A stretch of 64,000 bases of DNA, taken from the NCBI GenBank assembly GCA_024679065.1, contig JAGIQG010000043.1, positions 2,170,001 to 2,234,000 on the forward strand, written 5' to 3'. Position 1 is the stretch's first letter. The number at the start of each line of letters is the position of its first letter. The position numbers and the translations under genes were made by a program. The notes below the pieces were generated by a model. The model was given only the letters and a program-made list of their open reading frames with translations, did not search any database and had not been told where the DNA came from. This document shows, one piece after another, positions 5,899 through 54,547 of this stretch. Origin of the DNA: Sphyrna mokarran (Eukaryota).

Positions 5899-5956
<58 letters not shown>

Positions 5957-8408: not shown

Positions 8409-8409
8409 T

Positions 8410-28506: not shown

Positions 28507-31500
28507 CTGTGGATGAAAAGTGATCTGTTAGCGTGACACACACCATTATTATAGTGACAGGTGAGACCATTGAGTCCCCCCAATCCTCCGCCTCCCCCCC
28601 CCACTCCATTCAATCGGCTCATGGCTGCAAGGTAATTCAACTCACAGTCACCCACTAATATTGAATAATCCTTAATCCCTCCCCAATATAAATCTAACTG
28701 TCGCATCTCTGGAGTACCAATTGCCCAATGCTCTATATAGCGTTTTAGTGACCAGTATTCCGCCCCGCGTTCTGTGAAGATTTATTGTTGTCACATATGT
28801 GAGTATGCATTGAAATGTAATGATTCTTGCCCACTGTACAAACAAAGTGTATCGTGTGTGAAGAATGAAAGGAGAAGGTGCAGATTATAGTGTTACAGTG
28901 ATAGACAGGTTTGAAGAGAAAGTTCAACTTAACATGAGACAGGTCAATTCTATTGCCTGATGGCAGCAGGGAAGGAGCTATCCTTGCGTGACCTCAGAAT
29001 TGTATATCTTTTTTCCCGAAGGAAGAAGAGGGAGAAATAAAACGTATTCAGGCTGCGTGAGGTCCTTGATAATGGTGGCTGTTTATATAGAAACAGAAGA
29101 TTGCAGCAGGGAGAGGTCATTTGGCCCTTTGAGTCTGCTCCAGCATTCATTATGATCATGACTGATCGTCCAGCCCAATCGTCTAATCCTTCTTTCTCCC
29201 CATAAACTTCGCTCCCAAGTGCTGTATCCAGCCACCCATTGAATACATTCAATGTTTTGGCATCAACTGCTTCCTGTGATAATGAATTCCACAGGCTCAC
29301 CGAGTGAAGAAATGTCTCCTCACCTCCGTCCTAAATGGTCTATCCCAAAACCTCAAATAGTGACCCCTGATTCTGGACTCCCTTCACTATCGGGAACATC
29401 CTTCCTGTATCTACCCTGTTTAGCCTGTTAGAATTTTATAAGTCTCTGTGAAATCCCCCCTCATTCGTCTGAACTCCAGTGAAAACAATTTTAATCTGGT
29501 CAATCTCTCCTCATGCGTCAATCCCGCCATCCCTGGAGTGAGCCTGGTGAACCTTCGCTGCACTCCCTCCAGAGCCAGAATATCCTTCCAAAGTGAATGC
29601 ATTTGGTATGTCTCCTGTTCTGTCCAAGACTGCAAGAACTGGTCTTGTCCCATTATTCAAACCATCATCCCCTCCATTGACTCTATCTCCACGTCCTGTT
29701 GCCTCAGGGAAAAGCAGCCAACATAATCGAGCACCCCGACCCCACCCACGCATCCCGGACATTCTGTCTTCCACCTTCTCCCATTGGGAAAATGATACAA
29801 AAGTCTGAGGTCAGGTACCAACCGACTCAAGAACAGGTTCTTCCCTGCTGCTGTCAGACTTCTGAATGGACTCAACTCGCACTAAGTTGATCTTTCTCTA
29901 CACCCTAGGTATGACTGTAGCACTATATTCTCCACTCTCTCCTTTACTTCTCAATGAACGATATGCTTTCTCTGTGTAGTGCGCAAGAAACAATACTTTT
30001 CACTGTATCCCATACACGTGACAATAATAATCCAAATCTCAAATATTAAGCAAAACATACTTTCACTGTACTCCAATGCTGTGACAATTCCTGTACTCAA
30101 TGAACGGTATGCTTTGTCTGTATAGCGCGCAACAACAACGCTTTTCACTGAATCCCAAAACACTTGCCAATAATAAATCCAATGTATGTACTCTGTGAAT
30201 GGTATGCTATGGCTGTGAACTGTGCAAAAAACAATACTTTTCACTGTCTCCTAATGCATGTGCCAATAATAAATCATAAATAAATCATAAATCAATAATA
30301 AATCATAATAAATAATAAATAGAGTATGTACTCTATAAACGGTATGCTTTGTCTTTATAGCGCGTAAGAAACAATACTTTTCACTGTATCCCAATATATG
30401 TGACAATAACAAACCAAATCTATGTACTCTATGAATGGTATGCTTTGTCTGTATAGTAGACAAGAATCAATTCTTTTCACTGTATCCCAATATATGTGAC
30501 TATAATAAATCAAATCAAATCAAATGTGCCATGAATGAATTAAACAAAAAAAGCAAACTTGAAAGAAGTTATTCGGCCTCGAAGCTTTCTCTGCCCATGG
30601 AAGCTGCCAGGTTTGTTGACCTTTTCTAGAATTTTCTGTGTTCATTGTCAATTCCAAACCGCGGATAAATAATTAATGAAAAGTATCCGCGCGGTATGTA
30701 AAAAAAAATCCAAACATTCACCTCTTTATTCTGTTTGTGTTCTCTGAATTCTGTCAGTTCCTCATCAGTGTCCGCGGGTCCTGTTAGAAAGAGGGATTTA
30801 AACTGAAATTTAAAATGGACTAATTTCACACCGAATTCGCTCAGAATTATCAATAACTCGGTGATAGATGTGTGGATTGAGAACGCCGCGGAGTAACAGA
30901 TTCCCCCCAAAATCGCTACCTCTCTGCCGGTTCCTGCAGATCCTTCTTCCAGCCACAAGGACCAATCCCAGAAGAAGAAGGGCCGCGGCCGACAAACCCC
31001 CGGAAAACACGAATTGACAGATTGGCCAGAACGGAGAATCTGTAAAAAAGCATTAAACTTTCAGTCTACAGAAATCAAGTGTGGAAATAATTAAACAAGC
31101 AAGCATCTTGTTCAATTCAACTGCCCAATTTGACCGGAAAATGAGAAAAACAATTGCACACTTTCCTTTCATGTAATAGAGTCGCACTTTGACAACAGAA
31201 CGCAAGGCGAGGCAAAGAGAGATACTGACAGAGAGACTGAGTACTTTTTGAATAGGGCACACAGAGAGATGGAGCGAGTGAGTGGAACATTCAGGCAGAG
31301 AATAATCATATAATCCCATAGGGCAGAAGAAGACCATTTGGGCCATCAAGTCTGCATCACCCTATCCCCGTCACCTCGCGTATTTACTCTGCTCATCCTC
31401 CTGACTCTCAGCTCAATTTAGCATGGCCAATATACCTATCCCGCACACTTTGGGCACTAAGGAGCAATTTAGCATGACCAATCCACTTAACCCGCGTATC

Positions 31501-34500
31501 TTTGGACACTAAAGGACAATTTGTCACAGCTAATCTAACTAACCTACATATCTTCGATACTAAGGAGCAATTTACCATGGCTTATCCACCTAACTTACAC
31601 ATCCTTTGACATTAAGGGCAATTTACCATGGTTGATCCACCTAGCCTTCACATCCTTTGACACGAAGGAGCAATTTACTGCGGCTGGTCCACTTAACCCA
31701 ACACACCCGTTGACACTAAGGGGCATGTACCATGGCTGATCCACCTAACCGACACATCCTTTGGCACTAAGGGACAAATTAGCATTGCCAATCCACCTAA
31801 CTGGCACACCTTTGGACACAAAGGGGCAAATTAGCATGGCCAATCCACTTATCCCGCACATCTTTGGACACTAAGGGGCAATTTAGCAGGTCCAATCCAC
31901 TTAACCCGCATATCTTTGGACACAAAGGGGCAATTTAGCACGGCCAATCCACCTAACCTGCACATCTTTGGAATTTGTGGGAAAACAGGAGCACCCGCGG
32001 TAGAGCCGATGTAATTGAATGGGATTGAAGTACTGGGAGGCGAAGGGATGAATAAATGGTTCACTGCTGTGCTGAGATAGAGAGCAACACTGGGGATATA
32101 ATCACATATTTCAATTTTACACACTGACACATTGGTCCCTGACCTTGAGATGCGTCATGTTGTCTTAGCCAGATACAAGAAGGCGAAGAGGAGAAGAGTC
32201 CATTCGGCCTATCTCATCTATTCTGCCATCCAACATCACCATCCCTCACCATGTTTACAAATTTCATTTCTCCGCTCTTTCTCTTACTCATTAATCTATC
32301 CACTCTCACAAATGTGCTTCAGTGATTGAACATCCACGAAGAGAGGCAAAGAAGAAGAAGCGAAGAAGAGGCAAAATATCAGAAAATGAAACCGGGAGGA
32401 TTATGATAGAACAGTTCTGATTTAGACATTCATGGATGCCTGCAGAGACATTTGTAATTTACAAAGTTAGGCTGCTTTTAGTAAAGTGTCCCGTTATTAT
32501 TAAATGGAAAGAAAAATAGTCATTGTGAATAGTCACCTTTCTGAGATGAGAAACTGTCACTGAGAATACTGTCACTGGAGTTGACCCGAACGGCGCAGGT
32601 ACAGCGAGCTCCGCTTCTCCAAGTTTCCGCTGGAAGGCTGATGTAACTCCTGACGGTGTAGGTCCCGTCTGGCTCCAGTGTCCCCGAATCGGTCTGTCCC
32701 TCGGCATCCCGCCCCGAAACATTCCAGCGGACAGGAAAAGAATCGGGAGACACACCTCTGACCAGGCACATCAATGGGACCTTTTCCATGACGGGAATCT
32801 CATTCAGCGGCGGGGTGAGGAGGAATATGGAGGGAGAACCCGCTAAATTCGGCAAATGAAACGGAGAACAGTCATTAACTGGTGGACACTTTACTTGCTC
32901 TGAAATACCCACTGCAATAGAATATTAATGGAATTTACCTGCAATCATTAATTTGGAGCCATTTCCGAATATTCGGACCATGTTCTGATAATTTTGCGTT
33001 GCACAGTAATACAGCCCAGAGTCATTTATTCTGGAATCCGCAATGATTAGTGAATAAAGGCGCCCATTTTCAGAAATCTCGCTGGAAAATCTCCCCTCAG
33101 GTCGGCTATTCTCATACGCTGTGTAAACCAAATCCATATTGTTTCTTCGTTTCTGTCTGTACCAAAAGACAGTACTAGCAGCTTGACCCTGGATGTGGCA
33201 GCTGAGATTAACAAGACTCCTTGCAGGGAGTGTCTGAAGTGGCGGAGACTGGGACACGGTGACCTGAGACATTGTAACTGGGAAAGAGAAGGACAGAGAA
33301 CAACAATTACCTCAGGTTATGGAGCATTCCCTGAAGACAGTGGACAATGGCAGTAAACCTCAAACTACCCAGTGACACTTCCCACTACCTCGGGGAAAAG
33401 CAGCCAGCATAATGAAGGACCCCCTACAGACCCCGGACATCTTCCGTCTGGAAAAAGATACAAACATTTGATGTCACGTACCAACCAACACAAGGACAGC
33501 TTCTTCCCTGCTGCTGTCAGACTTTTGAATGGACCTACCTCACGCAAAGTTGATATTTCTCTACACCCTAATTATGACGGTAACACGACATTCTGAACTC
33601 TGTCCTTTCCTTCTCTATCTACGGCATGCTTTGTCTGTATCGTGCGCAACAAATAATACATTTCATTCTATAGTAATACAGGTGACAATAGTAAATCAAA
33701 TCAAATGAAACCACAAAAGTGCCTCATTCAGAAAAAAAATGGAACATAGAACATTACAGCGCAGAACAGGCCCTTCGGCCTTCGATGTTGCACCGACCAA
33801 TTACGAAAAAAGCAATGACCCTCCAAACTAAACCATTCCCTTTTCTTCCATAAAATTATCAACTAACCTCTTAAATGCCGCCAATCTTGGCGCATCTACA
33901 ACTGCTGCAGGCAGGGCATTCCACTCCCGAACCACCCTCTGGGTAAAGAACCTACCTCTGATATCCGTCCTATAACTATCACCCCTTAATTTAAAGCTGT
34001 GTCCCCTCGTGCTAGCTTTCTCCATCCTAGGAAAAAGGCCATCACTGTCCACCCTATCTAAACCTCTAATCATCTTATATGTTTCGATAAGGTCTCCTCT
34101 TAGCCGCCTCCTTTCGAACGAAAACAACCTCAAATCCCTCAGCCTCTCCTCATAAGACCTGCAAATATCTGTCTAATTATGGTGTTAGTTGTCTCATTTT
34201 CCTCTTCCCTTTCGAAAGGTGTAATATCAGTCCATTCACCAGTAAATCTGGTTTAAACACTGGTGAGGGGGCACATGGGAACTGGGTGATGTTAATCACA
34301 CAGAGAGCTTCAGTAAAATTACATTTCTCAATATTGCTTCCATCCCGTTTCTCTCCTTATAGAAAAGCGAATGACTGCGCATGCCTGAAACTGAACAAAA
34401 GAAAACAGAAAATGCTGGAAAATCTCAGTGGGATTAAGGGAATTGCGATCAGTGCCGACTCGATGGGCCAAGTGGCCTCCTCGAGCAGTGAACAAACTGA

Positions 34501-35574
34501 CTCTAGGATTCTCGTTCTAGAGCATCAGTGGAGAGAGAATGGACCCGACGTTTCGAGTCTGGATGCCGCTTGGTCAGCGCTCCATTTGCCTCTCTGCCGA
34601 TGCTCTCAGAATCCGAGAATCATAGAGTCCTACAGTGCGGAAAGTGGCCGTTCAGCCCATCGAGTCTTCTCTATTCCCGCCAACCCACATATTTACACTG
34701 CTAATCCTCTGCTACAAAGCGGCAATCGAGCGCGGCCATTCAAAGTAACCTGCGCATCTTTGGATATTGGGAGGAAAGATGAAAGCACGGATGAAACCCA
34801 CGCAGTCACGGAGAGAACGTGCAAACTCTGCAGACAGTGACCCAAGCCGGGAATTCAAACCTGGCGCTGTGACCACTGTGCCACTGAGATCTTTCAGCAC
34901 TTTCTATTTTTGCCTCGTTTCTTTTCCTCCGTTGACTTTGGGCGCCAAAGTCTGTTCAAGAATTTATAACTGACTCTGAAGTTTTACTTAAAAAGCTTTT
35001 TCTCCCACGTGGCCAATATTGTTAAGGGAGTCTATTCACAATGCATATCTCAGGAGAAATGAAAATCAGATTAATTCCATTCTAATCATTGTTATGAATC
35101 GACGTTGCATTGTCTCAGCAACATTTGATTCATTGTTAAACTTGCACGCTAAATCACAACTTACAGAACTGCTGAAGCCCGGGGAGGGGGACCGTTTAGC
35201 CCTACCAATTTGAGTTAAATCTGTAAAGGTTTCGCTCATATTATCGAATTTCCCCTTCAAATTTGTATCCAATTCCCCCATTTTGAAAGTTCCATTTCCC
35301 CCGTTTGAAAGTTCCTTGTTGGATCTACTTCCTTCGCCCTTTGAGGCAAAAGCCTTCAGATCACAGCAGCTCAGATGCGCTAAAAAAAATCCCCTAATTT
35401 CCCTCTCTGTTACTTTGACCAAATTCATATTCCCTTGGTTCCAGAAACTCTTGCTAACGGAAACAGTTTCTACCTCTTCGCTCAATCCATAACCTTCTCC
35501 GTTCTATCTGAATATAATGAGGATATCTCACCCTGGAAGAGATGGAACAATGCACAGATACCGAGGAAACCCAT
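28462..35574 (-). CDS. Gene B: intact ~303-aa non-rearranging VJ-C1-TM receptor with ITSM/ITIM-like tail (PRARP/VJC1-like)
   Basis: Exons 35574-35532, 33277-32939, 32842-32537, 31039-30920, 30780-30722, 28506-28462 join in frame (912 nt including stop), all introns GT-AG. Confidence 0.85.
29085..29590 (-). mobile_element. CR1 LINE 3' fragment (older subfamily) in B intron 5
   Basis: KDILALEGVQRRFTRL.PGMAGL..EERLTRLKLFSLEFRRMRGD. Confidence 0.8.
29600..30525 (+). mobile_element. Rex1-type LINE 3' end with tandemly reiterated tail
   Basis: accaaccgactcaagaacagg..., then five copies of tgaa(c/t)ggtatgcttt...tacttttcactgt...; a similar reversed array lies at ~36180-36470. Confidence 0.7.
30722..30780 (-). 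CDS. B exon 5, cytoplasmic (GPADTDEELTEFREHKQNKE)
   Basis: ttctaacag| acceptor, GAG|GTGAAT donor, 59 nt, phase 1 to 0, the same phase pattern as A exon 5. Confidence 0.72.
30920..31039 (-). CDS. B exon 4, Cys-stalk + TM (DSPFWPICQFVFSGGLSAAALLLLGLVLVAGRRICRNRQR)
   Basis: ttttttacag| acceptor, hydrophobic segment followed by basic stop-transfer residues, G|GTAGCG donor; 120 nt. Confidence 0.82.
31310..32000 (-). repeat. V-SINE with ~11 tandem 52-bp units
   Basis: Unit ctttggacactaaggggcaatttagcatggccaatccacctaacc.gcacat; period 52 (31862 to 31914). Confidence 0.85.
32537..32842 (-). CDS. B exon 3, C1-set Ig domain
   Basis: PSIFLLTPP...VPLMCLVRGVSP...VRW...DGTYTVRSYISLPAETWRSGARCTCAV; 306 nt, phase 1-1. 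Confidence 0.92.
32939..33277 (-). CDS. B exon 2, germline-joined VJ domain
   Basis: QVTVSQSP...VNLSC...VFWYRQ...GRFS...DSGLYYCATQNYQNMVRIFGNGSKLMIA; FGxG J motif in the same exon; no RSS seen. Confidence 0.95.
33740..34162 (-). mobile_element. Young CR1 3' fragment in B intron 1
   Basis: [27 protein letters not shown]...; (ttctatg) tail. Confidence 0.9.
34610..34885 (-). mobile_element. V-SINE
   Basis: ggagagaacgtgcaaactctgcagacagtgaccca...gggaattcaaacc central and head motifs. Confidence 0.65.
35532..35574 (-). CDS. B exon 1, signal peptide MGFLGICALFHLFQ
   Basis: ACAATGG start context, hydrophobic, phase-1 donor G|GTGAGA; joins to VTMS-QVTVSQSP. Confidence 0.72.
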
Positions 35575-37149
35575 TGTCCTTGAGCGAGACCATGAGACTC
35601 TGAGCCCCTGTTCTAAATTTCACTGAGAACTGGCTCTTGTTCTTTCTGTGTGGGGGAGGTGTGAAATACGCGCACTCTGTACATGAATGAAAACATGACA
35701 GGGGTTTGAAAATAGAACCGAGGTAGAGAGCTGTCTGCGGTTTTCCTGTTTACTACAGGCCCAGTGCTGGCGAGCATTCGGCATGTTCTCCAAAATGTGT
35801 CAAATATCTCACTCACATCAGCTACACCAGACATGGAGTGCAGAGCACGGCTCTTCCGAATCTGGTAAGGATTCCCAGGTTGTGGAAAAGGTGCAGTTAA
35901 CATTTCACAACGAATGATACCAGAAATGAGAGCGTGAAACTGTCAGTGAGCCTTGAGGTAGTTGGTGCTCTGTATCTCTAAAAGAAAAATTGAAAATTGA
36001 GGGCTGATCCACTGAAATATTTGCAATTATGAAATGGTTCAACAAGGCAGAAGTCGGATTCCAAGATATTGCAGGATGAGTTTGTCGCTAAGCAGGAATT
36101 CAGGACAAAAATGTATCTAGGAAGAATGGGGAGGATATGGAAGTCGGTTGCATAGGGAATGCTTTTGATTGGATTAGAATTGATTTGATTTCTTACTGTC
36201 ACATGTATTTTAATACAGTGAAAAGTATTGTTTCTTGCGCGCCATACAGACAAAGCATACTGTTTAGAGAGTGAACACAATCGATTTATTATTGTCACAT
36301 GTACTGGACTAAAGTGAAAAGTATTGTTCCTTGAGCGCTATGCGGACAAGACATACCGTTCATAGAATATATAAATTTGATTTATTATTGTCACATGTAT
36401 TAGGATACATTGGAAAGTATTATTTCTTACGCGCTATACAGACAAAGCATACTGTTCATCGGGAAAGAAAATAGAATGTAGTGTCACTATCATTGCCAGG
36501 CTGAAGAGAAAGTTGAACTTAATGCAAAGTGGGCCCATTTTTCGTTTATAATAATACATGTGACAATAATAAATCAAACCAAATCAAATTAAAATGTGCC
36601 CATTAAAAATAAATGGCACTATTAAGATCTTTCTGATTATGGCGTTAGTTGCCCGATTTTCCTCCTCATGTCCGCTTGAGACGAATGACAAAGATGTATT
36701 TTAATTGGGCAGCTGGATAGACACCAATGAGAGAAAGGAGTAGAAGGATATGTTGATGGAGTGATAGAAAGAAAGAATGGGGTACCTCTGGAACATTGAC
36801 AGCAGCTGATAGGCCGAATGGTCCAAAACTGTTCTGTGCTTTTTATGTAATTGTGTCAGAAAAACATGAAATCAAAGCCATCCTTTGATACTCTGATATG
36901 CGAACAATTATTGCTGCCTCTATGCTTTACATGGATTGCAACAGGGCATAGTCCACATTACTTCAGAGAGATTACAATTGTCTAGTTTAATGTTGAGCCT
37001 GGCCCGAATATAGGATGTCCCCAGGTTCTTGGTAGCCGGTGATATGTCTTTGCAAATGCACTTAGTTTGGAAATATAGGAGACTCAGTCAGGTTCGTGCA
37101 AAACGGGATGCTGAAAATTGACAATTGATAAAGTTTGGATAAGTTAACT

Positions 37150-37940
37150 TACAGAAGCATAAAACTCCTATAGTGCAGAAGGAAGGCCATTCAGCCCACT
37201 GAGCCTGCACTGCTAGCAAATGCACCCAGGCGCTATCGCCGTGACCCCACACACTTAGCCTGCAAATTCCTCTGACACTAAGAGACTATGTAGCATGTCC
37301 AATCTACCAAACATGCACATCTTTATCCACTAAGGAACAATTTAGCACGGACAATCCGGCGTCCTGCACATCTTTGGATAGTTGGGGAGAATTTAGCTTG
37401 GCCAATCCACATAACCTGCACATCTTTGAACACTAATGGACAACTTTCTCATGGCCAATCAGACAACCGGCACATATTTGGCCACTCAGGGACAATTTTG
37501 CAGGACCAATCCAGAATACCTGAACATCGTTGGATACTAAGACTAATAGAGGTGTATAAAATTATGAAGGGCACAGATAGGGTGAAGCTTTTTCCCAGGT
37601 CGGAGGTGACGAGCACAAGGGGTCATAGTTTCAAGGTGAGGGTGGGGGGGAGCAAAGTTCAACGCAGATGTCAGGGGGACGTATTTCATACAGAGGGTGA
37701 TGGAGGCCTGGAAAGCAATACCAAGCAAGGTGGTTGATGCGGATACACTGGGATTGTTTAAGACTTATCTCGATAACCACATGAACAGACTGAGAATAGA
37801 GGGATACAAACGAATGGTCTAATTGGTCACATGAACGGCGCGGGCTTGGAGGGCAGAAGGGCCTGCTTCTGCGCCGTACTGTTCTTTGTTCTAAGGGGCA
37901 ATTAAGCATGGTCAATCCACCTAATTGCACATTGTTGGTC
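37150..37940 (-). mobile_element. V-SINE tandem array interrupted by a plus-strand CR1 3' fragment (~37538-37892)
   Basis: 52-bp units flank LIEVYKIMKGTDRV...TRGHSFKV and a CR1 tail. Confidence 0.7.
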
Positions 37941-41677: not shown

Positions 41678-42467
41678 CCAATGTGGAAAAGTGTGAGCTA
41701 ATGCACTTTGGCAGGAACAATAAATGTGTAGAGTATAGGGCTAATGGTAGGGCTCTTAATAGTGTTGAGGAACAGAAGGATCTTGGTGTATGTGTCAATA
41801 GATCCCTGAAAGTAGGCAGTCAAGTGGATAAAGTTGTTAAGAAGGCATATGGAGTCTTAGCTTTTATTGGTAGGGGGATTGAATTTAGGAGCCGCAGCAT
41901 CATGTTGCAACTGTACAAAACTCTAGTGCGGCCGCACTTGGAGTATTGTGTGCAGTTCTGGTCCCCACATTATAAGAAAGATGTGGAGGCATTGGAGAGG
42001 GTACAGAGGAGGTTTACCAGGATGTTGCCTGGTATGGAGGGCAGGTCCTATGAAGAGAGGTTGAAGGATTTGAGGTTGTTTTCGTTAGAAAGGAGGCGGC
42101 TAAGAGGGGATCTTATTGAAGCATATAAGATGATTAGAGGTTTAGATAGGGTGGACAGTGATAGCCTTTTTCCTAGGATGGAGAAGCTAGCACGAGGGGA
42201 CACAGCTTTAAATTAAGGGGTATGAGTTATAGGACGGATATCAGAGGTAGGTTCTTTACTCAAAGAGTGATTAGGGAGTGGAATGCCCTGCCTGCAGCTG
42301 TTGTAGATGCGCCAAGTTTGGTGGCGTTTAAGAGGTTAATTGATAAGTATATGGAAGAGAAGGGAATGGTTTAGTTTGGAGGGGCATTGCTTTTTATTTT
42401 GGTCGGCACAACATCGAAGGCCGAAGGGCCTGTTCTGTGCTGTAATGTTCTATGTTCTATGTTCTAT
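41678..42467 (+). mobile_element. Young CR1 3' fragment inserted into a V-SINE tandem array
   Basis: NVEKCELMHFGRNN...[17 protein letters not shown]...; (ttctatg)n tail; 52-bp SINE units on both sides. Confidence 0.92.
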
Positions 42468-43702
42468 AATTTTCACATCTTTAGACAGTAAGCGACAACT
42501 TAGCACGGTCAATCCACCTAATCTACACAAATTTAGACACTAAGGAGCAATTTGGCATGACCAATGCAACTAATCTGCTCTTTTTGGATACTAATGTGCA
42601 ATTTAGCATGGCCAATCCACCTAATTTACAAATCTTTAGACAGTAAGGTACAATTTGGCACGGCCATTCCATCCTAACCTGCACATCTTTGGACATCATC
42701 ATTTTCGAAAGAAAATCCTTGCTAAGGAATTCACATCCCGCGAATGAATTGAAATTTAGCTGAAATAGAAAACATATCACCACACAATTATTGTACTGAA
42801 ACACTCCCTGAAGACATGCTGCCTGTCCATCGCTATGGCGCACAGTCGATGGCCACACTGTGTCAAGTGAATGTGGAATTCACCAGCACACCGCACCAAA
42901 CTTGTGTCAGACTTTCCATTGCACAGCCCGTCATAATTTCCACTGTATCTGAAAGGGACAAAGTTCTCTGGGTTTGAGCTCAGGTCAACCTGCAGCCATT
43001 AACCCTACAGAAACAAACAGGTCCACAAAACATGTAGAAATAGCACGTAAAGATATCCAAAGAATTGTTATATGCAAGATTCATTTTCCTGTTGTTGCAG
43101 GTTTATGTTGAGTAAAAGAGGTAAGAACTATCAGCTAGAATAAGTATTCACACAGTAAAAACTGTGACCCCATCTTCAGATGAAAGGAACTACTCTGTTC
43201 ATGCGAGTTTGCTTTTTTTTTCCTCACATAAATGTTCATTAAAGGTTCAGTAATGCCCTTTAGGGAAGGAATTTTCCCTCCCTTATCTGGTTTGCCCGAC
43301 ATGTGGACTCTTGAGCTAGAGTAATGTGATTGATTTTTAACGGCCCTCCAAAAGCAACTAGGGATGGTCAAAAAATGGTGGCCCAGCCAGCAACACCCGT
43401 GTCTCAAAAATGAACATTCAAAAAAGCTTGTGATGGCTTCATTTTACTTTTATATAGTAAAATATGATTTTATTTGAACCCTAAATATCAGTGCAATGGT
43501 TCACTGCACTGTGTTTTCAAAGAGCCAATTTTTCCCTAAATCCTTCGCTCCTTTTCTCTATTTTCCTCCCTAACTTCCTTTTGTTTCAGAGGGTATTTGA
43601 TAGTAAACAAGGTGGCTTTGGAATAGAGATACATGTCATCCAGGCCAGGTGAGAACGATCGATTTCCTTCCCGAAACCAGTTGTATTTTACGACAATCCA
43701 CA

Positions 43703-44060
43703 ACAGAACATAGAACATTACAGCGCAGAACAGGCCCTTCGGCCTTCGATGTTGCGCCGACCAATTATGAAAAAAGCAATGACCCTCCAAACTAAACGAT
43801 TCCCCTCTCTTCCATAAACTTATCAACTAACCTCTTAAACGCCACCAAACGTGGCGCATCTAAAACAGCCGCAGGCAGGGCATTCCACTCCCTAAACACC
43901 CTCTGGGTAAAGAACCTACCTCTGATATCCGTCCTATAACTATCACCTCTTAATTTAAAGCTGTGTCCCCTCGTGCTAGCTTTCTCCATCCTAGGAAAAA
44001 GACTATCACTGTCCACCCTATCTAAATCTCTAATCATTTTATATGTTTCGATAAGGTCTC
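43703..44060 (-). mobile_element. Young CR1 3' fragment
   Basis: Same subfamily and tail. Confidence 0.88.
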
Positions 44061-44499
44061 AATGGTTTAATGATCATCATTAGACTTCTGAACCCAAATT
44101 TCTATTGGAGACAAGATCCCGGGTGAGGTCGTCCTCATGAATGGGGGACTTGGCTATAATTTTGTGTTTGGCGAGTATGCGTTTTCTTGTATCTTGAACA
44201 CCGCCTTGGAGACCGCTTACCCGTCACTGTACATCCCTCCACATACATTGTCTGCACCTGTAAAGACTTGATTAACTGTAAAGACTCGCATTCCAACCAT
44301 TGTCTTGCAATTGTGTCTCTATCTATATATACCGTGCTTGTGAACCCACCTTTCCTCTCACCTGAGAAAGGAGCAGTGTTTCAAAGGCTCGTAATTCCAA
44401 ATAAACCTGCTGGACTTTATCCTGCTGTTGTGAGATTTATTACTGTCCTACACAATATTGAAGATTCATTTCCATGGCAACGTTGTTATCATTGTATTA

Positions 44500-44840
44500 T
44501 CATAGAATTTTACAGCGCAGAAAGAGGCCCTTCGGCCCATTGAGTTTCCCCCAAAACAATCCTACCCAGGCCCTACCCCCTTATCCCTATACATTATACC
44601 ACTAATCCCTCTAACCTACACATCCCTAGACGCTAAGGGGCAATTTCTTAGCATAGCCAATCAACCTGACCCACATATCTTTGGACTGTGAGAGAAACCG
44701 GAGCACCCGGAGGAAACCCACACACATACAGGGAGAATGTACAAACTCTACACAGACAATGACCCGAACCGAGAATCGAACCCTGAACCCTGGAGCTATA
44801 AAGCAACAGTGCTAACCACTGTGCTACCGTGTCGCCCTAC
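44500..44840 (-). mobile_element. V-SINE (HE1-like)
   Basis: Complete reversed head (gggcgacacggtagcacagtggttagcactg) and tail. Confidence 0.75.
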
Positions 44841-46344
44841 CAGAATTGTAGGATGCAATCTTTATGGAGTTATGCATTTTTCTCTATTTCATTATTCAGA
44901 TGTTACTAATTCTAAGTTTGTGAAGCTTTGCAAGAAAGTTTCCAGTTAGCGATAAAGGATCAACATCAGTCTAACTATTTATTCCTCAATCAAGAAAAGC
45001 AATCGGATTTGGTTCAAGTTGTAGTTTCACCTATTTTGTAAATTCCATCTCCCAGACACTGGCAAAGTGTATTGCCGATTTAATAGATCTCCTATTTGAC
45101 TATCCCTTTCTTGTTCACGAGAACTTTGATTATATTATGAATATAAATGCTGGATAAAATCAGCAGTTCTGGCAGATCCGTGGAGACAGAATTGCAGTTT
45201 CACAGACATTCTCTCTCGCCACCATGACGCTCAGTGTATACCAATAATTGACCAAAGATCCTTCGACAGCACCTTCCGAACTTATGACCACTGCCTTGTA
45301 GAAGAACTAGAGCAGCTTATGCATGAGAACACCACCATCTGCAAGTTCCCCTTCGAGCCACTCACCATCCTGACTTGGAAATATATTGGCCGTCACTAGG
45401 CCAACATCCTGGAATTCTCTCCCTAACGGCCATTTTGTCAACCTATAGTAGGTGGACTGAAGTCTTTCAAGAAGTCAGCTCGCTTCATTCGGGCCATTGA
45501 GAAGGGGAACGAATTCTACCCATCCAGCGACCACCATATCCCAGGAATTAATAAACAAAATGAACATTTTAGATTCATGTGAGTTGTGCAGAATTTGAAT
45601 TGCGGTGTTGGGTTCTCTGAAACACATCTCAGTTTAGCATGAAGATATTGGAATTAAAAAGGGATACATTACGAGAACGCGTTACACAGAGTAAACTTAT
45701 TCCTTCCAGCGGGTAAAATTATGAGATGGTCTAATCTCTTTGTTTAAGTTTGAAAAATAATGTGATGAGTTGATGGAGGGAAATAGTGTCCTCTGACGGG
45801 GGCGGATTGGAGGAGCTTTCCATAACATGGTGTCAGAGCTTTTCAATTACTGCCAGAGTGTTTAGGGGTGATGTCAGGGTGCACTTTCCCAGTGTGGACT
45901 GGTACTGTGGATCACTGTCTCCCAAGAAGATCTTGATGCAACGATAAATGTCATTTTGTTGGATTATGTTACAGGGCCCCGTGTTCAATTCCGACTCCGA
46001 CACATGGCAAAAGATAAACACAACACAAAACATTTGGAATTAAATTCTAATGTATAATTAAAACCAGTTGTTGTAAAAAAGTCCGTGTTGACAAATCACT
46101 CATTAGTTGAAGGGTAAATAAGGATGGCCAATACATACTGGTGAACCGGTGACGCCGCCATTCCATGAATGAACTAATTGAAGAAATAGTGAAGTTTCTC
46201 CCTGGGAAAGAAAAGGGCCTCAAGCTTCCAATGTTTGCAATATCGAAATTGCAACGGATATACATCATCACCTCAATGAAACGTCCTTTGAATTTCACTT
46301 TCATAATGAACTATTTATTTTATTCAGGAGGCCAGTATCATTTA

Positions 46345-46903
46345 CATAGAACATAGAACATAGAACAATACAGCACAGAACAGGCCCTTCGGCCTTCGAT
46401 GTTGTGCCGACCAAAATAAAAAGCAATGCCCCTCCAAACTAAACCATTCCCTTCTCTTCCATATACTTATCAATTAACCTCTTAAACGCCACCAAACTTG
46501 GCGCATCTACAACAGCTGCAGGCAGGGCATTCCACTCCCTAATCACTCTTTGAGTAAAGAACCTACCTCTGATATCCGTCCTATAACTCATACCCCTTAA
46601 TTTAAAGCTGTGTCCCCTCGTGCTAGCTTTCTCCATCCTAGGAAAAAGGCTATCACTGTCCACCCTATCTAAACCTCTAATCATCTTATATGCTTCAATA
46701 AGATCCCCTCTTAGCCGCCTCCTTTCTAACGAAAACAACCTCAAATCCTTCAACCTCTCTTCATAGGACCTGCCCTCCATACCAGGCAACATCCTGGTAA
46801 ACCTCCTCTGTACCCTCTCCAATGCCTCCACATCTTTCTTATAATGTGGCGACCAGAACTGCACACAATACTCCAAGTGCGGCCGCACTAGAGTTTTGTA
46901 CAT
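46345..46903 (-). mobile_element. Young CR1 3' fragment
   Basis: 154-aa [19 protein letters not shown]...MEEKGMV. Confidence 0.92.
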
Positions 46904-47479
46904 CCATTGATGTATCGATTCATCAACTGATTTTGTTTATGCTTCACGCTATCTCCGAAAAATCGCGAGGTTATCTAAGGACCCCATTCACCCCAGACAA
47001 ACTCTCTTCCACCTTCTTCCGTCAGTAAAAAAAAATATACAGAAGTCTGAGATCAGCTACCAACCAACTTAAGAACAGCGTCTTCCCTGCTGCCAACAGA
47101 TTTTTGAATGAACATGCCATTATTAAGTGCTCTTTCTCTACATCTATGACTGTAACAATACATTCTGCAGCCTCTCCTATCATTCTCCCCTATGTACTCT
47201 CTGTGAAATGTATGTTTTGTCAGCAAGAAACAATAATTTTCAGTGTACCCCAATCCATGTAACGATAATACATCAAATCAAACCAAATTAAATCAAACAT
47301 TCAGGCTTTCTTCCAATGAAGAGGAAACAGATGAAACCATCTGAACTGCGTCATATCCCGGAAACAGATCGTCGGAAGTCAATTAGGCCAGATGACCATT
47401 AGTTGTAGGAGCAAAATTTGGCCATTTGGCGCATCGCGTCTGCTCCACCATCTGGTCATGACTGATCGGTTTCTCATTC

Positions 47480-47808
47480 CTTGGAAACCCTGCAGTGCAG
47501 AAAGAGGCCACTCTGTCCATGGAGTCCGCACCGACAACAATCTCACACAGGCCCTATCCCCTATTTTACCCGCTAATCTGTCTCACCGACGCATCCCATG
47601 ACACAAAGTGACAATTTAACTTGGTCAATCCACATAGCCCGGACATCTTTGGATTGTGGTAGAAAACCGGAGCACCGGGAGGAAACCCACACAGACATGG
47701 GGAGAATGTGCAAACTCTGCACAGACAGTGACCCGAGCCAGGAATAGAACCCAGGTCCCTGGAGCTGTGAAGCAACAGTGCTAACCACTATGCTACTGTG
47801 CTGCCCAA
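47480..47808 (-). mobile_element. V-SINE (HE1-like)
   Basis: Reversed gggcagcacagtagcatagtggttagcactgttgcttcacagctccagggacc head. Confidence 0.75.
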
Positions 47809-48154
47809 ACTCCCACCTTTTCCCTGTCAGATTTGATTCTCTTAACAATCAAAAACGCATCAATCTGTCAAATACACTCAGCGGCCTGGCCTCCAGAGTC
47901 ATCTGCGGCAACGAATTCCACAGATACACCACCTCTGGCTGAAGACATTGTTTCTCATCTCAGATCTTAGGAAATGCCCAGTTACTCCGAGAGGTGCCCT
48001 CGAATCCTAGTCATTGCTGCTAATGGAAGAATCTTCTATATGTCCACTCGATCCAGGCGTTTTAGTATTCTGCAAATTTCAATGAGATCCCCCCCACCCT
48101 TCTAAACTCCATTGAGTACAGACCCATTGCCCTCATATTGGAGCCTCCATATTG

Positions 48155-49182
48155 GCATATGGAGTCTTAGCTTTTAATTGGTAGGGGGATTGAATTGAGG
48201 AGCCGCAGCATCATGTTGCAGCTGTACAAAACTCTAGTGCGGCCGCACTTGGAGTATTGTGTGCAGTTCTGGTCGCCACATTATAAGAAAGATGTGGAGG
48301 CATTGGAGAGGGTACAGAGGAGGTTTACTAGGATGTTGCCTGGTATGGAGGGCAGGTCCTATGAAGAGAGGTTGAAGGATTTGAGGTTGTTTTCGTTAGA
48401 AAGGAGGCGGCTAAGGGGGGATCTTTGAAACATATAAGATAATTAGAGGTTTGGATAGGGTGGACAGTGATAGCCTTTTTCCTAGGATGGAAAAAGCTAG
48501 CACGAGGGGACACAACTTTAAATTAAGGGGTATGAGTTATAGGACGGATATCAGAGGTAGGTTCTTTACTCAAGAGTGATTAGGGAGTGGAATGCCCTGC
48601 CTGCAGCTGTTGTAGATGCGCCAAGTTTGGTGGCGTTTAAGAGGTTAGTTGATAAGTATATGGATGAGAAGGGAATGGCTTAGTTAGGAGGGGCATTGCT
48701 TTTTATTTTGGTCGGCACAACATCGAAGGCCGAAGGGCCTGTTCTGTGCTGTATTGTTCTATGTTCTATGTTCTATGATTTGAGGTTGTTTTCGTTAGAA
48801 AGGAGGCGGCTAAGAGGGGATCTTATTGAAGCATATAAGATGATTAGAGGTTTAGATAGGGTGGACAGTGATAGCCTTTTTCCTAGGATGGATAAAGCTA
48901 GCACGAGGGGACACAGCTTTAAATTAAGGGGTATGAGTTATAGGACGGATATCAGAGGTAGGTTCTTTACTCAAAGAGTGATTAGGGAGTGGAATGCCCT
49001 GCCTCAGCTGTTGTAGATGCGCCAAGTTTGGTGGCGTTTAAGAGGTTAGTTGATAAGTATATGGATGAGAAGGGAATGGTTTAGTTAGGAGGGGCATTGC
49101 TTTTTATTTTGGTCGGCACAACATCGAAGGCCGAAGGGCCTGTTCTGTGCTGTATTGTTCTATGTTCTATGTTCTATGTTCT
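48155..49182 (+). mobile_element. Two head-to-tail young CR1 3' fragments (48155-48776 and 48777-49182)
   Basis: The second unit restarts at gatttgaggttgttttcg immediately after the (ttctatg)n tail of the first. Confidence 0.9.
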
Positions 49183-50704
49183 AATTGTCCGGTAGATGTA
49201 ACCTTCCAGTTATCCCAGGACCTCTGTGAAGCTCACGTATTTTCTTTTTAATAAAGCCTCCTTCTGCAATGTAGGGATTCTACGTATCTTAAACCTTTTC
49301 GATAAAGTAACTGCCTTCAAGTAATGAGGTAACCTCAACTCCGCACAGTATGCATGTTGTGGAGACCTGAGTGACCTGCATTCAGCTCCACCCTCAGACC
49401 CCATTCAGGTTCCTTTCACCTCAGACCTCGCACTCAAGCCCCCTTCTCCCTCAGACCCACAACACAGTACCTTTTTCCCTCACATCTTCCAGTTCATCTC
49501 TTTTTCTACTCAGATCTCGTACTCAGCCCTCTTCCGGCCCGCGTCTATCCACACCATTCAGTTTGTACGGTGAGGCCTTTGCCCTTTGTCCTACCTATTT
49601 GTACCATCCCCTCCTGTCCCCATCATTTCTGCCTTCACACCACCTGCAGAATACTTTTGGATTTGTGGAAAGTGGCAAAGACCAAAATAGTCTTTCAGTC
49701 AGAGGTGTGAACCTCCGGGGAAGTTGGGCTGCAGTGTGTGAGTGACACTGGCATTGTTTAAAATCCGAACTTCCAGCACGCTCTTTGCTAAGACCGAGCA
49801 AATTTCAATGGGCGTTAATGTCATCCAATGAGATCTGGATAAGAAAGGAAGGAACAGCTGGCATGATGGGATAGGAGCACCATCCTTTATCTAGCTTTCC
49901 CTGTGTGTCTCAGGGCTGCGGCAGGTGCTAATATGGATTACCTGGAAACATTTCTTCCAGAGGGTGCTGTGGAGTCTGACCCTTGTGTGAACTCACCCTT
50001 CCCATTCCTCCCCCTGATCTGATGCAGGACTGCGAATGAAGGGAGTTCCGGGAGGTGTTCCAACATCCAACACACAGTTAGAGTTTGATCAGTGTGACGT
50101 TAGTGTTCCTTTAAGAAAAGATTTTTTTATTTAAATCATGATCGTTGCAGTTCTCACAGTTAGTGTTTCTCAGCTCACTGCCTTAGGTGATGTTATTGGT
50201 GGGAGGAGAAAAAAAAGTGTGCCGATCAGGTGACAAGGAGTGGTTTTAAATTGTTTTGGCTGCTGTGTTATAAGCATAGACAAATGAAGTCTGTCTGTCT
50301 TCTGTTTTATTTTATTTATTGGTCAATAGAAACATTTGATGCAGCGTTATAATTGAAGAGGAATTGATTTTATTTACGTGAAGGAATTTTCAAACAATTA
50401 ACAATCGCATCAGTAACTTGAGTTACAGAATATGCCATTGAAGATTAAGAAAAAAAGAAGGAATTATTATTGTGTTACTTCATACTTGCAAGACCTAAAT
50501 ATTGTAGAATATCTTTCAGAATGCTGAAAGAACTCATTACACATTTGACATGAGCCAGTCTTTCTAGTCTGTGGCCAGTATGCGATCAATTTTTAGCAGT
50601 TTGACGGGGACGTACTTGTTCCCATGTTGATTTCCACAGGGCAGGACATACATTGGTAATTCCAGTCTCCTGCATAATACGTCACAGACAAAACTCCCCG
50701 ATTC

Positions 50705-50782
50705 TCATTTCCCGATCTTCTTTTTTGACCTTTTTTCCAATGCAGCCAAATCCAGGGAGGCGTAGAGAGGTCCACCCTGAGA
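50705..50782 (-). CDS. A2 exon 6, SQGGPLYASLDLAALEKRSKKKIGK*
   Basis: 78 nt open, YASL ITIM-like motif. Confidence 0.72.
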   Translation of the reverse strand, partial: SQGGPLYASLDLAALEKRSKKKIGK

Positions 50783-50877
50783 CTGGGAAATATATTCAAC
50801 AGAAATGATTAAAATAAAGGTCTATTTCCCAAAACTCATTTGAATGTATTTTATTGCAAGTGGTTCATTGCACTCAC

Positions 50878-50927
50878 CTGTATTCTACGCTGCGTTTTCA
50901 AGTTCGTCTCTGTTTGACCGTGATCCC
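50878..50927 (-). CDS. A2 exon 5, cytoplasmic (GDHGQTETNLKTQRRIQ)
   Basis: AG/GT boundaries identical to A1 exon 5. Confidence 0.7.
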
Positions 50928-52549
50928 CTGTGTGTTAAGAGTTAAACTATGAATTGAAATGTCACCCAAGCTGTAGAATCTATAAGTATATAGAAACATC
51001 GCGCGCCAATGACCGCCTGTGTATCAACAGTTTGAAGTCTATTTAATAGAGTCACAAGTAGGCTTATATTAACTCTGCAAGGAAGTCACTGGAAGAATTT
51101 CCTCCTCGTCACATCCCGGTGCTGGTTTAGATGCACTGATGGAGAATTTAGCATCGCCAACGCATCTAAATAGCACATCGTTTGAACTGTGGGTGGACTA
51201 GTCGGAAGAAACACCCGCACACAGGGAGAACATGTAAACTCGGCATAGACAGATGCCCAAGCCAGGAACCGAACCAAGGTCCCTGATGTTGCGGGAGAGC
51301 AGTGCGAACCACTGTGCCACCGTGCCACTGCAATAGGTTGCTGGGCTACAATCATTAACATACAGCCCACCTAAATTTCGTCAACACGATAGATATTCCA
51401 CAATTCTTCACATTAGATATGACATTTTAGGTGAAGGGGGCCAAAGGATGAGGGGAGAAGGCGCGGTCAGGCTATTGAATTGGGTGATCTGCCATGATCA
51501 TGGTGAATGGCGAAGTAGGAGCAAAGGACAGGCTGGTGTCTTCCTGCTCTTATTTTGAATGTTTCTATGCCAAGTGGCCAATGGACGAATGAGGGAGATC
51601 TCACACCATTATCTGTGTCTTGTTGTCCACCACAGGGCGGCACGGTAGCACAGTGGTTAGCACTGCTGCTTCACAGCCCCAGGGACCTGAGTTCGATTCC
51701 TTGGGTTAGTGCCTGTGAAGAGTTTGCACAACCCCCTCGTGTTTACGTGGGTTTCCTCCGTGTGCTCTGTTTTCCTTCCACAGTCCAACGATATGCGGCC
51801 TAGGTTGATTGGCCGTGCTAGACTTCCTCCTTAGTGTCCCAAGATGCATATATTAGACTGGTTAGCGGGTGAATATTGGGGTAGGAGCTGGGTGGAATGG
51901 TGTTCAGTACAGACTCGGTGGACCAAATGACCTCTTTCTGTACTGTAGGGTTTCTATGATCTGTGTCAACATCAACAATTTCCCCATTTATGAAACCAAC
52001 CGCTGCAAGATTGATTGTTGCTTTTGCTGAAGATAAGGAACGCACGCTGTGGACAGAAATAGCAAGTGCACACATTATGGTTAATCCAAATAAACAAAGG
52101 AGAGGACAGCCATTGCCTGGTTCATTCCTCGGGCCAATGCTTTGACCAATCAGTGAAACGACCTCTTTTAACTATCTAGCAGGAAGTTAATAAGGCAAAT
52201 GTTATGTTGTCATTGATAGACTGAGGATTTGAGAACAGGAATGAGACATTTTACTACAATTGTACAGGGCGTTGGTGAGAAGTGATATATGGAGTTTTGG
52301 AATCCTTATCTGTGGAATGATGTCCTTACTATAGAGGGTGACTGTTTATCAACTGATTTCTGGTTGGCGGGTCTGTTTTTTAAGGAGAGACTAAGTCGAT
52401 ACGATTGTATTGACTGGAGATAAGAAGATTGAGAGGGGACTTCAAGGAACCTTATAAAATTCTGAAAGGACTCGATAGGGTAGATTGAGAAGCAATGTTG
52501 CCGATAGTTAAGGTGTCCAGAACAAGGGATAATAGGTGGCAACGAGGAT

Positions 52550-53357
52550 AACGAGGTGGCAAATGGAGTTTAATGTGGAAAAGTGTGAGGTAATGCACTT
52601 TGGCAGGAACAATAAATGTGTAGAGTATAGGGCTAATGGTAGGGCTCTTAATAGGGTTGAGGAACAGAAGGATCTTGGTGTATGTGTCAATAGATCCCTG
52701 AAAGTAGGCAGTCAAGTGGATAAAGTTGTTACGAAGGCTTATGGAGTCTTAGCTTTTATTGGTAGGGGGATTGAATTTAGGAGCCGCAGCATCATGTTGC
52801 ATCTGTACAAAACTCTAGTGCGGCCGCACTTGGAGTATTGTGTGCAGTTCTGGTCCCCACATTATAAGAAAAATGTGGAGGCATTGGAGAGGGTACAGAG
52901 GAGGTTTACCAGGATGTTGCCTGGTATGGAGGGCAGGTCCTATGAAGAGAGGTTGAAGGATTTGAGGTTGTTTTCGTTAGAAAGGAGGCGGCTAAGGGGG
53001 GATCTTATTGAAACATATAGATAATTAGAGGTTTGGATAGGGTGGACAGTGATAGCCTTTTTCCTAGGATGGAAAAAGCTAGCACGAGGGGACACAACTT
53101 TAAATTAAGTGGTATGAGTTATAGGACGGATATCAGAGGTAGGTTCTTTACTCAAAGAGTGATTAGGGAGTGGAATGCCCTGCCTGCAGCTGTTGTAGAT
53201 GCGCCAAGTTTGGTGGCGTTTAAGAGGTTAATTGATAAGTATATGGAAGAGAAGGGAATGGTTTAGTTTGGAGGGCCATTGCTTTTTATTTTGGTCGGCA
53301 CAACATCGAAGGCCGAAGGGCCTGTTCTGTGCTGTATTGTTCTATGTTCTATGTTCT
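52550..53357 (+). mobile_element. Young CR1 3' fragment nested in an older CR1, specific to duplication copy 2
   Basis: WQMEFNVEKCEVMHFG...; older CR1 sequence flanks it at ~52200-52550 and ~53360-53640; absent from copy 1. Confidence 0.9.
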
Positions 53358-54445
53358 AATAGTTTGAGGTTATAGGGGAAACCTTTTAGATCTAAAATGA
53401 GGAGAAATGTCTTCCCCTAGAGGGTGGTGAATATATGGATTCATACCACAGAATATAGTTGAGGCCAAAACGTTATGTGATTTCAGGAAAAAAACAAATA
53501 CAGTTCTTGGGATTAAAGGGATCAAATGGTACGGGGGAAAGGAGGATCAGATTGTTGAATTTGATTATCAGTCATTGTCATAATGAATAGCAGAGCAGGT
53601 TCGAAGGGCCGAATGGCATACTCCTTCTTCTAGATTCCATGTTAACAAATGTCGGCAGATAATTGGCAATTATCAGTTAACTGGAGCACTCTCCATAAAA
53701 ATGCTGCAACCAATCAAAAATCATTTTGCTAAACAGGTAAATTGTCTTTTCAGGAAGAATGCATAACTGTTTCCCTTATATATGCTACTCTTGTGTTATT
53801 TTTTGTGCGAATGAATACAAGGCCAAACGCCTCGATGATATGTTTTTGTTTGACAAAGCTCAAGTACTCCATTTATTCAAATTTTCTGTCAAACATGCCT
53901 CAGCAGTTAACCGTCAGTACAAAACAACTGGTGCATGCACCATAGAAACGCCTCTAATAATCAATTTCTACTTCATTTTTTTTTAAATTCTGACATTTAA
54001 ATTGACTAACATTTCGCAGAAACCTACCCATTTGTTGTTCCTTACGTCCCTCTCGATGCCTTCTCTTGCTGAAGCTAAAATTGGATGTTGGAAAAGAACG
54101 CCAAACAAATGTTATATCTGGGCTATCAAATCTCAGATGCGTGCACATTTTTGAAAGTAGGATTGTCCAATGGTCTGATATAAATCATAGAAAATAGAGG
54201 CACACATCCTGGAATCAGTTTTCTGATTGAAATAGGTCTGACAAAATATAAGACAGAGAAAGAGGGGACAATGAACAATGTTAAAATTTGCACACACTGT
54301 TCTCTTACTCACGTGTCATTCTGGGATCCTAATTCTCTGTCTTCTACAATAGAAGAACGTACGATTAGCTAATTAAAAACTGCAAAGAGGAAATCATATT
54401 GAGGGAAAAGATATTAAAATGTCTCAGATAATCACTAATCTTCAC

Positions 54446-54547
54446 CTGATCTGCTTTGCTTACAATTCCAAATGGAAATAAGGACCGACAGCAGAATCAA
54501 AATGACCAGGGCAGTCATTCCAACAGAAACTACCTCTCTGCACCATT
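54446..54547 (-). CDS. A2 exon 4, Cys-stalk + neutral TM (EWCREVVSVGMTALVILILLSVLISIWNCKQSRS)
   Basis: ttttatag| acceptor, G|GTGAAG donor, 102 nt open, phase 1-1. Confidence 0.8.

Follow-up and report, generated by a model that had tools for sequence, protein, structure and literature searches.

The window, i.e., the whole stretch of 64,000 nucleotides analysed here, contains genes of two types, A and B, in the order A-B-A (A1, B, A2), all on the minus strand and all following the plan leader-VJ-C1-TM-tail.

60716..60770, minus strand: A1 leader exon, ATG start, phase-1 GT donor
59807..60139, minus strand: A1 germline-joined VJ exon, open
59401..59716, minus strand: A1 C1 exon, 316 nt versus 330 in open copies, frameshift past the first F-strand Cys
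54446..54547, minus strand: A1 TM exon, with the membrane-proximal Cys encoded at 54540-54542 and a TM free of charged residues
50705..54343, minus strand: A1 cytoplasmic exons (54313-54343; about 54027-54069, ends uncertain; 50878-50927; 50705-50782)
35532..35574, minus strand: B leader exon
32939..33277, minus strand: B germline-joined VJ exon, WYRQ and FGNG present
32537..32842, minus strand: B C1 exon, open
30920..31039, minus strand: B stalk and TM exon, with the membrane-proximal Cys encoded at 31017-31019 and a TM free of charged residues
28462..30780, minus strand: B cytoplasmic exons (30722-30780; 28462-28506)
8354..8408, minus strand: A2 leader exon
7432..7764, minus strand: A2 germline-joined VJ exon, open
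7011..7341, minus strand: A2 C1 exon, 331 nt, frameshift
2705..2807, minus strand: A2 TM exon, Cys codon at 2800-2802
1017..2602, minus strand: A2 cytoplasmic exons, behind the stop (2572-2602; about 1198-1250; 1017-1094)
49695..63999, plus strand: old duplicate of window positions 1-12963 (A gene and flanks), 68-89% identity, offset 50-53 kb

The B gene is intact, encodes 303 amino acids after splicing and has AG/GT sites. Both A genes are pseudogenes, frameshifted in C1. The preliminary description of this DNA had joined A and B into a cassette spanning 30920 to 54547, and this span is exact: it runs from the base that closes the TM exon of B to the one that opens the TM exon of A1. A fixed reading of one cassette as one receptor fails in the window, since B, itself intact, is flanked on either side by a broken A. 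The last cytoplasmic exon encodes PLYASL in A1 and TLYARL in B; each chain type has one Tyr motif, neither being a textbook ITIM at position -2, and TLYARL is ITSM-like. In A2 an Arg lies nine residues past the Cys and a stop follows directly after the TM, an end type that is common to one other copy and that, going by the motif, would be of the activating type. Among all copies most TMs are uncharged and followed by long Tyr-bearing tails, and a minority carries a TM Arg. Near-identical ectodomains occur with either inhibitory-type or Arg-bearing, tail-less membrane ends, the activating and inhibitory roles being putative assignments from motifs only. In one block, present twice, the Tyr motif is lost on both chains and B has gained a TM Arg; tail switching is not always coordinated, as two Arg-type A genes adjoin B genes with a Tyr motif.

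How are the two types arranged beyond the window? Contig C1027, to which the window belongs, bears an array of 33 A and 38 B genes, 71 in all, and a second, lone A/B pair lies head-to-head on contig C894. The alternation of A and B claimed earlier is represented in the window by A-B-A alone and holds at the contig level, where 51 of 70 adjacencies join unlike neighbours (35.3±4.2 after shuffling, p=1e-4), albeit 19 of 70 neighbours are alike and tandem, convergent and divergent layouts are all found. Alternation was rejected as proof of function, because an array born from a pair alternates without selection: in a neutral simulation from one A/B pair, a simple model with arbitrary settings, at least 51 unlike neighbours arise in 13-84% of runs, depending on the setting. 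Several blocks were indeed duplicated together, as had been proposed for the cassette. The subtrees of B1248/1537/1574/1630 and A1258/1519/1562/1606, of B2440/2450 and A2409/2480, and of B2727/2779 and A2703/2754 match (names give kb on C1027), and the partner correlation rho reaches 0.81 upstream (n=22) and 0.59 downstream (n=26), with only 0.31 where the array is young (p=0.055, n=15). Duplication as a unit does not extend to loss, which is uncoupled: the nearest B is broken for 1 of 9 broken A genes (Fisher p=0.22), and intact genes stand beside broken partners in 8 and 8 of 31 nearest pairs.

At the membrane-proximal Cys the TM exon reads E-W-C-R-E in A1, D-W-C-R-E in A2 and D-S-P-F-W-P-I-C-Q-F in B. 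The single Cys just outside the membrane that had been noticed here in both types recurs in 31/31 A and 34/34 B TM exons located in the genome (those of 3 A and 5 B genes were not located). It is also present in all database proteins with a TM, 43/43 A and 21/21 B from other sharks and rays (64/64) and 3/3 from teleosts, a count that leaves out 14 proteins without TM and 5 unparsed ones. The B motif W-P-I-C-Q-F is found in the window copy, to which W-P-I is peculiar, whereas across B copies D-x-x-x-x-x-x-C alone is kept. Although the stalk Cys is single, the F strand of C1 carries further Cys (CxC) in 26/28 A and 31/33 B genes. The distance from the F-strand Cys to the stalk Cys is 28 in 5/5 A and 26-27 in 5/5 B copies measured, and despite this similar stalk length the exon border splits the stalk differently in A and B. 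A stalk Cys also links homodimers such as CD8aa and CD28.

In A and B alike, V and J lie in a single germline exon, and of 73 V loci only 2 have loose RSS-like matches nearby. Each gene has one C1 exon followed by the TM; PF07654 is found on most homologs, and gene model and predicted folds agree. The V-V pairing motif is retained in both types as described earlier, WxxQ being present in 30/30 open A and 27/30 open B V exons. By contrast, Pro at W+9 is found in 29/30 A versus 0/30 B and FGxG in 30/30 B versus 5/30 A, an asymmetry resembling that of an Fv pair. Calling the types very divergent is apt for V (26% identity) and less so for C1, where the identity of 44% indicates that A and B are paralogs of one family. 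The Arg/Asp pattern of C1 is common to both; in 3 A copies the C1 exon is 5 residues shorter, with no B showing a matching shortening. Conservation in C1 is somewhat higher at interface columns than elsewhere (p=0.045 for A, 0.086 for B), and in V the interface columns show no such excess over the others (p=0.79 and 0.75). dN/dS is about 0.5 in frameworks and C1 and 0.94-1.09 in the CDR-like loops, a value near 1 that relaxed constraint fits equally well as diversifying selection.

By sequence, the V domain of the window B is closest, among solved structures, to those of Ig light and TCR alpha, and the predicted B fold best matches Fab and TCR chains. As the A copies of the window are broken, complex prediction used A and B of the horn shark, both intact, without alignments from this analysis. 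The A+B complex scored 0.71, while none of the 3 controls exceeded 0.01; at least 83% of contacts recur between runs, with partner pLDDT of at least 78. The pass mark is reached by 51/78 solved and 2/108 mismatched microbial pairs, and by 71/105 and 2/126 eukaryotic ones. In the predicted interface Pro68 of A packs against Phe118 of B, the C1 faces are packed together, and Cys242 of A and Cys237 of B both lie within it. Since Fab and TCR structures resemble the pair, this likeness may explain the pass as memory.

Are A and B found together in other species? Of the 10 other species, 9 have both types on one record, in line with linkage in sharks and rays, which the preliminary description had proposed to test; in Scyliorhinus canicula the single B found sits on a different record from the A copies. 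A and B form separate clades, each containing sharks and rays, and relatives with the same anatomy exist in sturgeon, lungfish, turtles and salmonids. In the tree, proteins of sturgeon, lungfish and turtles join A at UFBoot 100, and another set of turtle proteins joins B at UFBoot 49 only, suggesting that at least the A lineage is older than the shark/bony-fish split. A and B probably belong, as we assume, to a family already described in chickens, and the spread of their relatives fits the PRARP/VJC1 pair. This pair, reportedly described by Fu et al. in 2019 as PRARP1/PRARP2 and by Ohta et al. in 2019 as VJC1, is said to consist of linked non-rearranging VJ(-C1)-TM genes with ITIM/ITSM-like Tyr, ranging from bony fish to birds, whose recombinant chicken products are reportedly monomers, homodimers or heterodimers. 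Like the pair as so described, A and B are two linked paralogs with bony-vertebrate relatives, a single-exon germline VJ, one C1-set domain, a TM and ITIM/ITSM-like Tyr; the shark array differs in its roughly 70 copies, its variable loops and its Arg-bearing, tail-less forms. Novelty is limited because a chicken PRARP heterodimer has reportedly been described already. PRARP is counted among the VJ genes in the MHC (PMC10751288), whereas in the shark all matches to MHC class I (53/53) are on contig C1548 and none on C894 or C1027, the latter an unplaced 2.9 Mb piece. The supplement of that paper gave no match for PRARP, VJC1 or catshark gene numbers, and a literature search, reaching few subscription papers, found no paper on the shark A/B array.

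On the whole we lean towards the reading that A and B are ancient paralogous, non-rearranging VJ-C1-TM chains that form a mix-and-match germline heterodimer. They would pair V-to-V and C1-to-C1, like TCR or Fab, and a disulfide between their membrane-proximal Cys would lock the heterodimer. Any A could pair with any co-expressed B, beyond its own neighbour, and the variable CDR-like loops of both chains would then create a germline combinatorial binding site, the likeliest class of ligand being surface molecules, whether polymorphic self or microbial. In most A-B pairs both chains would contribute one Tyr motif to an inhibitory signal, and the minority with a TM Arg and without Tyr motif would activate via an ITAM adaptor, FcR-gamma for example; homodimers may form too. 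For the two-chain heterodimer proposed in the preliminary description, the matching stalk length, the Fv-like asymmetry, the linkage in sharks and rays, the C894 pair and the predicted complex speak in favour, whereas stalk Cys, WxxQ and C1 Arg/Asp pattern are symmetric and fit homodimers equally.

It is rather unlikely that A and B each form disulfide-linked homodimers of their own, as do CD28, CD8aa and UrIg2, with an alternation that stems only from an ancestral tandem pair amplified by unequal crossing-over. The neutral simulation, the uncoupled loss and the presence of Cys and Tyr motif on each chain separately would suit such homodimers, yet Pro and FGxG are complementary and the FGxG bulge, on which an A-A V pair would rely, is absent from most A chains, both lineages are retained side by side in sharks and rays, and the Tyr motif underwent one double loss. 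A precedent for homodimers is given by UrIg/UrIg2 (PMC12227049). Matching subtrees and the high upstream rho would be expected if each B-A neighbour pair were one dedicated heterodimer, duplicated and lost as a unit, but the low rho in the young part, the intact genes so often beside broken partners, window included, and the mixed layouts with like neighbours make this improbable. Monomers or other partners, with another role for the membrane-near Cys and a predicted pairing that is a memory of Fab structures, could be argued from a complex predictor that is prone to pass pairs resembling solved complexes, from the Fab and TCR likeness of the B model and from the chicken PRARP products, which are reportedly in part monomeric. 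This is highly improbable, as an unpaired extracellular Cys would have been kept in 65/65 TM exons and 67/67 database proteins, and the outward C1 faces of the model are hydrophobic.

Regarding known receptors, A and B share with TCR alpha/beta and gamma/delta the layout VJ-C1-stalk Cys-TM, phase-1 exons and a predicted Fab-like pairing. Membership among TCRs was rejected because V and J are germline-joined, most TMs are uncharged, without conserved charged residues for CD3, and the Tyr-motif tails are long. CD8 is likewise a linked gene pair with J-like V domain and membrane-proximal Cys that forms homo- and heterodimers, but has a hinge, no C1 and single copies; the C1 exon of A and B thus excludes them from CD8. 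With SIRP, LILR, KIR and teleost NITR they have in common the tandem expansion, opposite-type ends on near-identical ectodomains and many pseudogenes. Those receptors are single-chain, with V-C1-C1 and no J motif in SIRP and V-I in NITR, unlike VJ-C1 in two interleaved lineages; SIRP membership was rejected given the one C1, FGxG in 30/30 B and an atlas ranking that places V-C1 clusters above SIRP clusters. Among the VJ-C1 proteins of sharks, UrIg/UrIg2 have been studied best; they are disulfide-linked homodimers with three to eleven C1 domains, encoded in the MHC or Ig/TCR complex and expressed in liver and gill (PMC12227049). A and B resemble them as elasmobranch non-rearranging VJ-C1 proteins with predicted disulfide-linked dimers and differ by a signalling tail and by one C1 exon per gene versus three or more (PMC12227049), for which reason membership was rejected.

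Research into how Ig and TCR arose seeks non-rearranging VJ-C1 genes; of the shark ones, those with solved or expressed proteins, UrIg/UrIg2, are homodimers (PMC12227049). If A and B do pair, a two-chain receptor is possible without rearrangement. For sharks, the array is also a concrete candidate for leukocyte receptors of the paired activating/inhibitory kind. Possible, although on balance doubtful, is a RAG-independent germline two-chain repertoire in which some 22 A and 27 B open chains, freely combined, would provide hundreds of TCR-shaped sites in inhibitory and activating versions. If true, this would be a candidate NK-type receptor system in sharks and a living model of a heterodimer predating the RAG split of V from J.

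Upstream of the B copies an ETS site is present in 33/33 and a RUNX site in 30/33, raw counts without chance control; a matching arrangement was not found in the 4 A upstream regions examined. Weaker V and C matches on contig C772 are germline-joined Ig light chains outside the A/B family. No gene was identified in the 200 kb left of the array among 60 of 240 ORFs scanned, and the flanks of the C894 pair, about 260 kb (150 of 433 ORFs scanned), contain one GPR139-like GPCR and one RT fragment. Nicastrin is located on contig C446.

The three Ig-superfamily genes of the window, which belong to the two non-rearranging types A and B, lie in the following positions:

60770-50705, minus strand, Ig-superfamily gene A1
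35574-28462, minus strand, Ig-superfamily gene B
8408-1017, minus strand, Ig-superfamily gene A2

Each consists of a leader exon, a single exon that joins V to a J-like strand, a C1 exon beginning about 90-95 nt past the VJ exon, a transmembrane (TM) exon and small cytoplasmic exons with a Tyr motif at their end. AG/GT splicing of the B gene gives an open 303-residue protein. The C1 exons of A1 (316 nt) and A2 (331 nt) are frameshifted relative to the 330-nt length of open copies, and both genes sit inside an old duplication with an offset of 50-53 kb and 68-89% identity. Homologs with a name, given automatically (for example 'immunoglobulin kappa light chain-like'), all come from sharks or rays, which identifies the genome as that of a shark. 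The C'-C'' region of the A-type V domains (7570-7600 and 59945-59975) bears an additional Cys pair instead of a normal CDR2, and A-like proteins of lungfish, turtle and sturgeon have this pair too. Degenerate A TM exons are found at 12417-12557 and 63466-63613 on the plus strand, opposite to the A genes and roughly 4 kb ahead of the leader of each A gene, with a further copy in another extracted stretch (L073:8141-8288). Several retroelement-like repeat copies in both orientations, 94-100% identical, occupy 41680-53365 between B and A1. Most B copies retain a putative ETS site next to a RUNX-like site, which in the window lies upstream of the B leader (35750-35765), some 180 nt from the B start.

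The contig bearing the window, C1027, contains at least 33 A and at least 38 B genes between 0.61 and 2.85 Mb, counts from searches that each scored 150 candidates; a C1 search added only four small fragments. V, C1 and TM exons are all open in some 22 A and 27 B. Assembly duplication may account for some of the near-identical copies and for identical matches on small contigs, C1404 among them. Another contig (C894, 2360092-2394881) carries a lone, divergent A/B pair in head-to-head orientation, with open exons and a spacing of 20 kb; its close relatives are found in Mustelus (A) and Scyliorhinus (B), and about 100 kb from it is an exon of a GPR139-like GPCR (L113:8752-9702). At C1027 620155-632225 an A-type V exon and C1 exon lead into TM and tail exons of B type, and neither an A TM exon nor a B V or C exon intervenes, possibly a chimeric gene or a deletion remnant. 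The A copies at 2124338 and 2703212 have open V and C1 exons and no TM exon ahead of the next gene, and are truncated or possibly secreted forms.

Are A and B the two chains of a disulfide-linked heterodimer, as was proposed for the interval 30920..54547, whose ends coincide with TM-exon borders of A1 and B? The feature itself, a Cys just outside the membrane, is real. When the DNA around every V match on C1027 and C894 was extracted and exons were called with nucleotide profiles, this stalk Cys was present in 31/31 A (residue 3 of the TM exon) and 34/34 B TM exons (residue 8), the counts excluding three A and five B genes with no TM exon in the extracted DNA. Database proteins with a TM segment agree (43/43 A, 21/21 B and 3/3 of salmonid type, excluding 14 proteins without TM and five unparsed). 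It stands alone in the stalk; both chains carry an additional C1 Cys in a CxC motif (26/28 A, 31/33 B), which is not among the residues named in the predicted interface discussed below. The proposed V-V pairing motif WxxQ holds for all 30 open A V exons and for 27 of 30 in B. Five A copies of one subfamily (C1027 1010638-1308983) and one other (1651047) have an aromatic residue in place of the first canonical V-domain Cys, and those five have the full FGxG that other A copies lack.

Several points favour an A-B heterodimer. The exon border divides the two stalks at different places, yet from the C1 F-strand Cys to the stalk Cys the distance is 28 residues (five A copies) or 26-27 residues (five B copies); three A copies are shorter by five residues. 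The V interface is asymmetric in a manner resembling an Fv, with Pro at W+9 in 29/30 A and never in B, and FGxG in 5/30 A and always in B. Moreover, complex prediction with the horn shark A and B proteins scored 0.71 against 0.01 for the best control, with 83% or more of contacts shared between runs and a pLDDT of 78 or more for the partners, passing a mark attained by 51/78 solved versus 2/108 mismatched microbial pairs and by 71/105 versus 2/126 eukaryotic ones. The predicted interface joins V to V (A Pro68 on B Phe118 and Tyr105) and C1 to C1, and names both stalk cysteines, albeit with no Cys-Cys pair among the 25 listed residue pairs; its C1 columns are slightly more conserved, its V columns not. 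Since the solved structures closest in fold are Fab and TCR chains, the pass may reflect likeness alone, and A with B was the only combination modelled. With moderate confidence, we take the likeliest mechanism to be that A pairs with B through V, C1 and a disulfide between the stalks, the chains being mixed and matched and not bound to a fixed cassette. The main rival, that A and B form independent homodimers, is less likely.

The related proposal that A and B were duplicated as a unit is borne out in part. Unlike neighbours number 51 of 70, compared with 35.3±4.2 after shuffling, and the A and B trees contain matching blocks. With two B fragments excluded, A-gene distances correlate with those of the upstream B (rho 0.81, n=22; 0.79 allowing for position) and less with those of the downstream B (0.59, n=26), the values in the young part of the array being 0.31 (p=0.055) and -0.05. 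The simulated pair-born array without selection reached at least 51 unlike neighbours in 13-84% of runs, and coupled loss of partners was not found in the 31 nearest pairs (14 both open, eight and eight with one broken, one both broken; p=0.22, counting the short-tailed A2409 as broken). Alternation is thus a record of history and no demonstration of function, and a fixed A/B cassette is unlikely. In nine other shark and ray species (Mustelus, Heterodontus, Cetorhinus, Carcharodon, Scyliorhinus torazame, Hypanus, Hemitrygon and two Mobula species), A and B lie on one record, as judged from identical record lengths and accessions that often run consecutively; the single B found in S. canicula is on another record than A; seven further genera have one type only among the matches listed.

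A profile search of 1.8 billion representatives showed that sturgeon, lungfish and turtles have proteins built in the same way (10 named), a species range and anatomy that we take to agree with PRARP1/2 and VJC1. In the tree, A joins one bony-vertebrate set at UFBoot 100 and B another at only 49, and a teleost-type and a lungfish-type set fall outside both groupings. A cluster of germline-joined Ig light-chain genes off the array contig (C772, 7.95-8.99 Mb) served as outgroup. Membership in the TCR, CD8, UrIg or SIRP families fails on the features tested. The likeliest origin of the array is the expansion, in sharks, of an already known gene pair to which paired-receptor ends were added; the available portions of PMC10751288 and PMC12227049 contain no description of it.

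As to these ends, most TM segments have no charged residue, PLYASL (in A) or TLYARL (in B) is present in most tails, and C1027 also holds near-identical copies with opposite membrane ends (1062421/1117550 and 2409876/2480952). B1062 and B1117 (named by type and kb position) are 99.7% identical across 5 kb including V and C1 and diverge beyond; B1062, like B1329, has a TM Arg and a stop ahead of the Tyr exon, B1117 neither. Similarly, A2409, which is 99.3% identical to A2480 across 2.3 kb, and A2 of the window (TM exon 2705-2807) have a TM Arg and a stop directly behind the TM. Five other shark genera have A-type proteins that carry Arg 8-9 residues past the Cys and, as annotated, lack a Tyr motif. 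Arg-type A copies adjoin B genes that retain the Tyr motif. The A partners facing B1062 and B1329 are also without Tyr, which sister copies retain; this loss counts as a single event that was duplicated, and the C1 donor is damaged in one of these partners. Pairwise dN/dS values, which are not independent and take in the open exons of genes that are broken, are 0.94 and 1.09 for the CDR-like loops compared with 0.47-0.53 for frameworks and C1.
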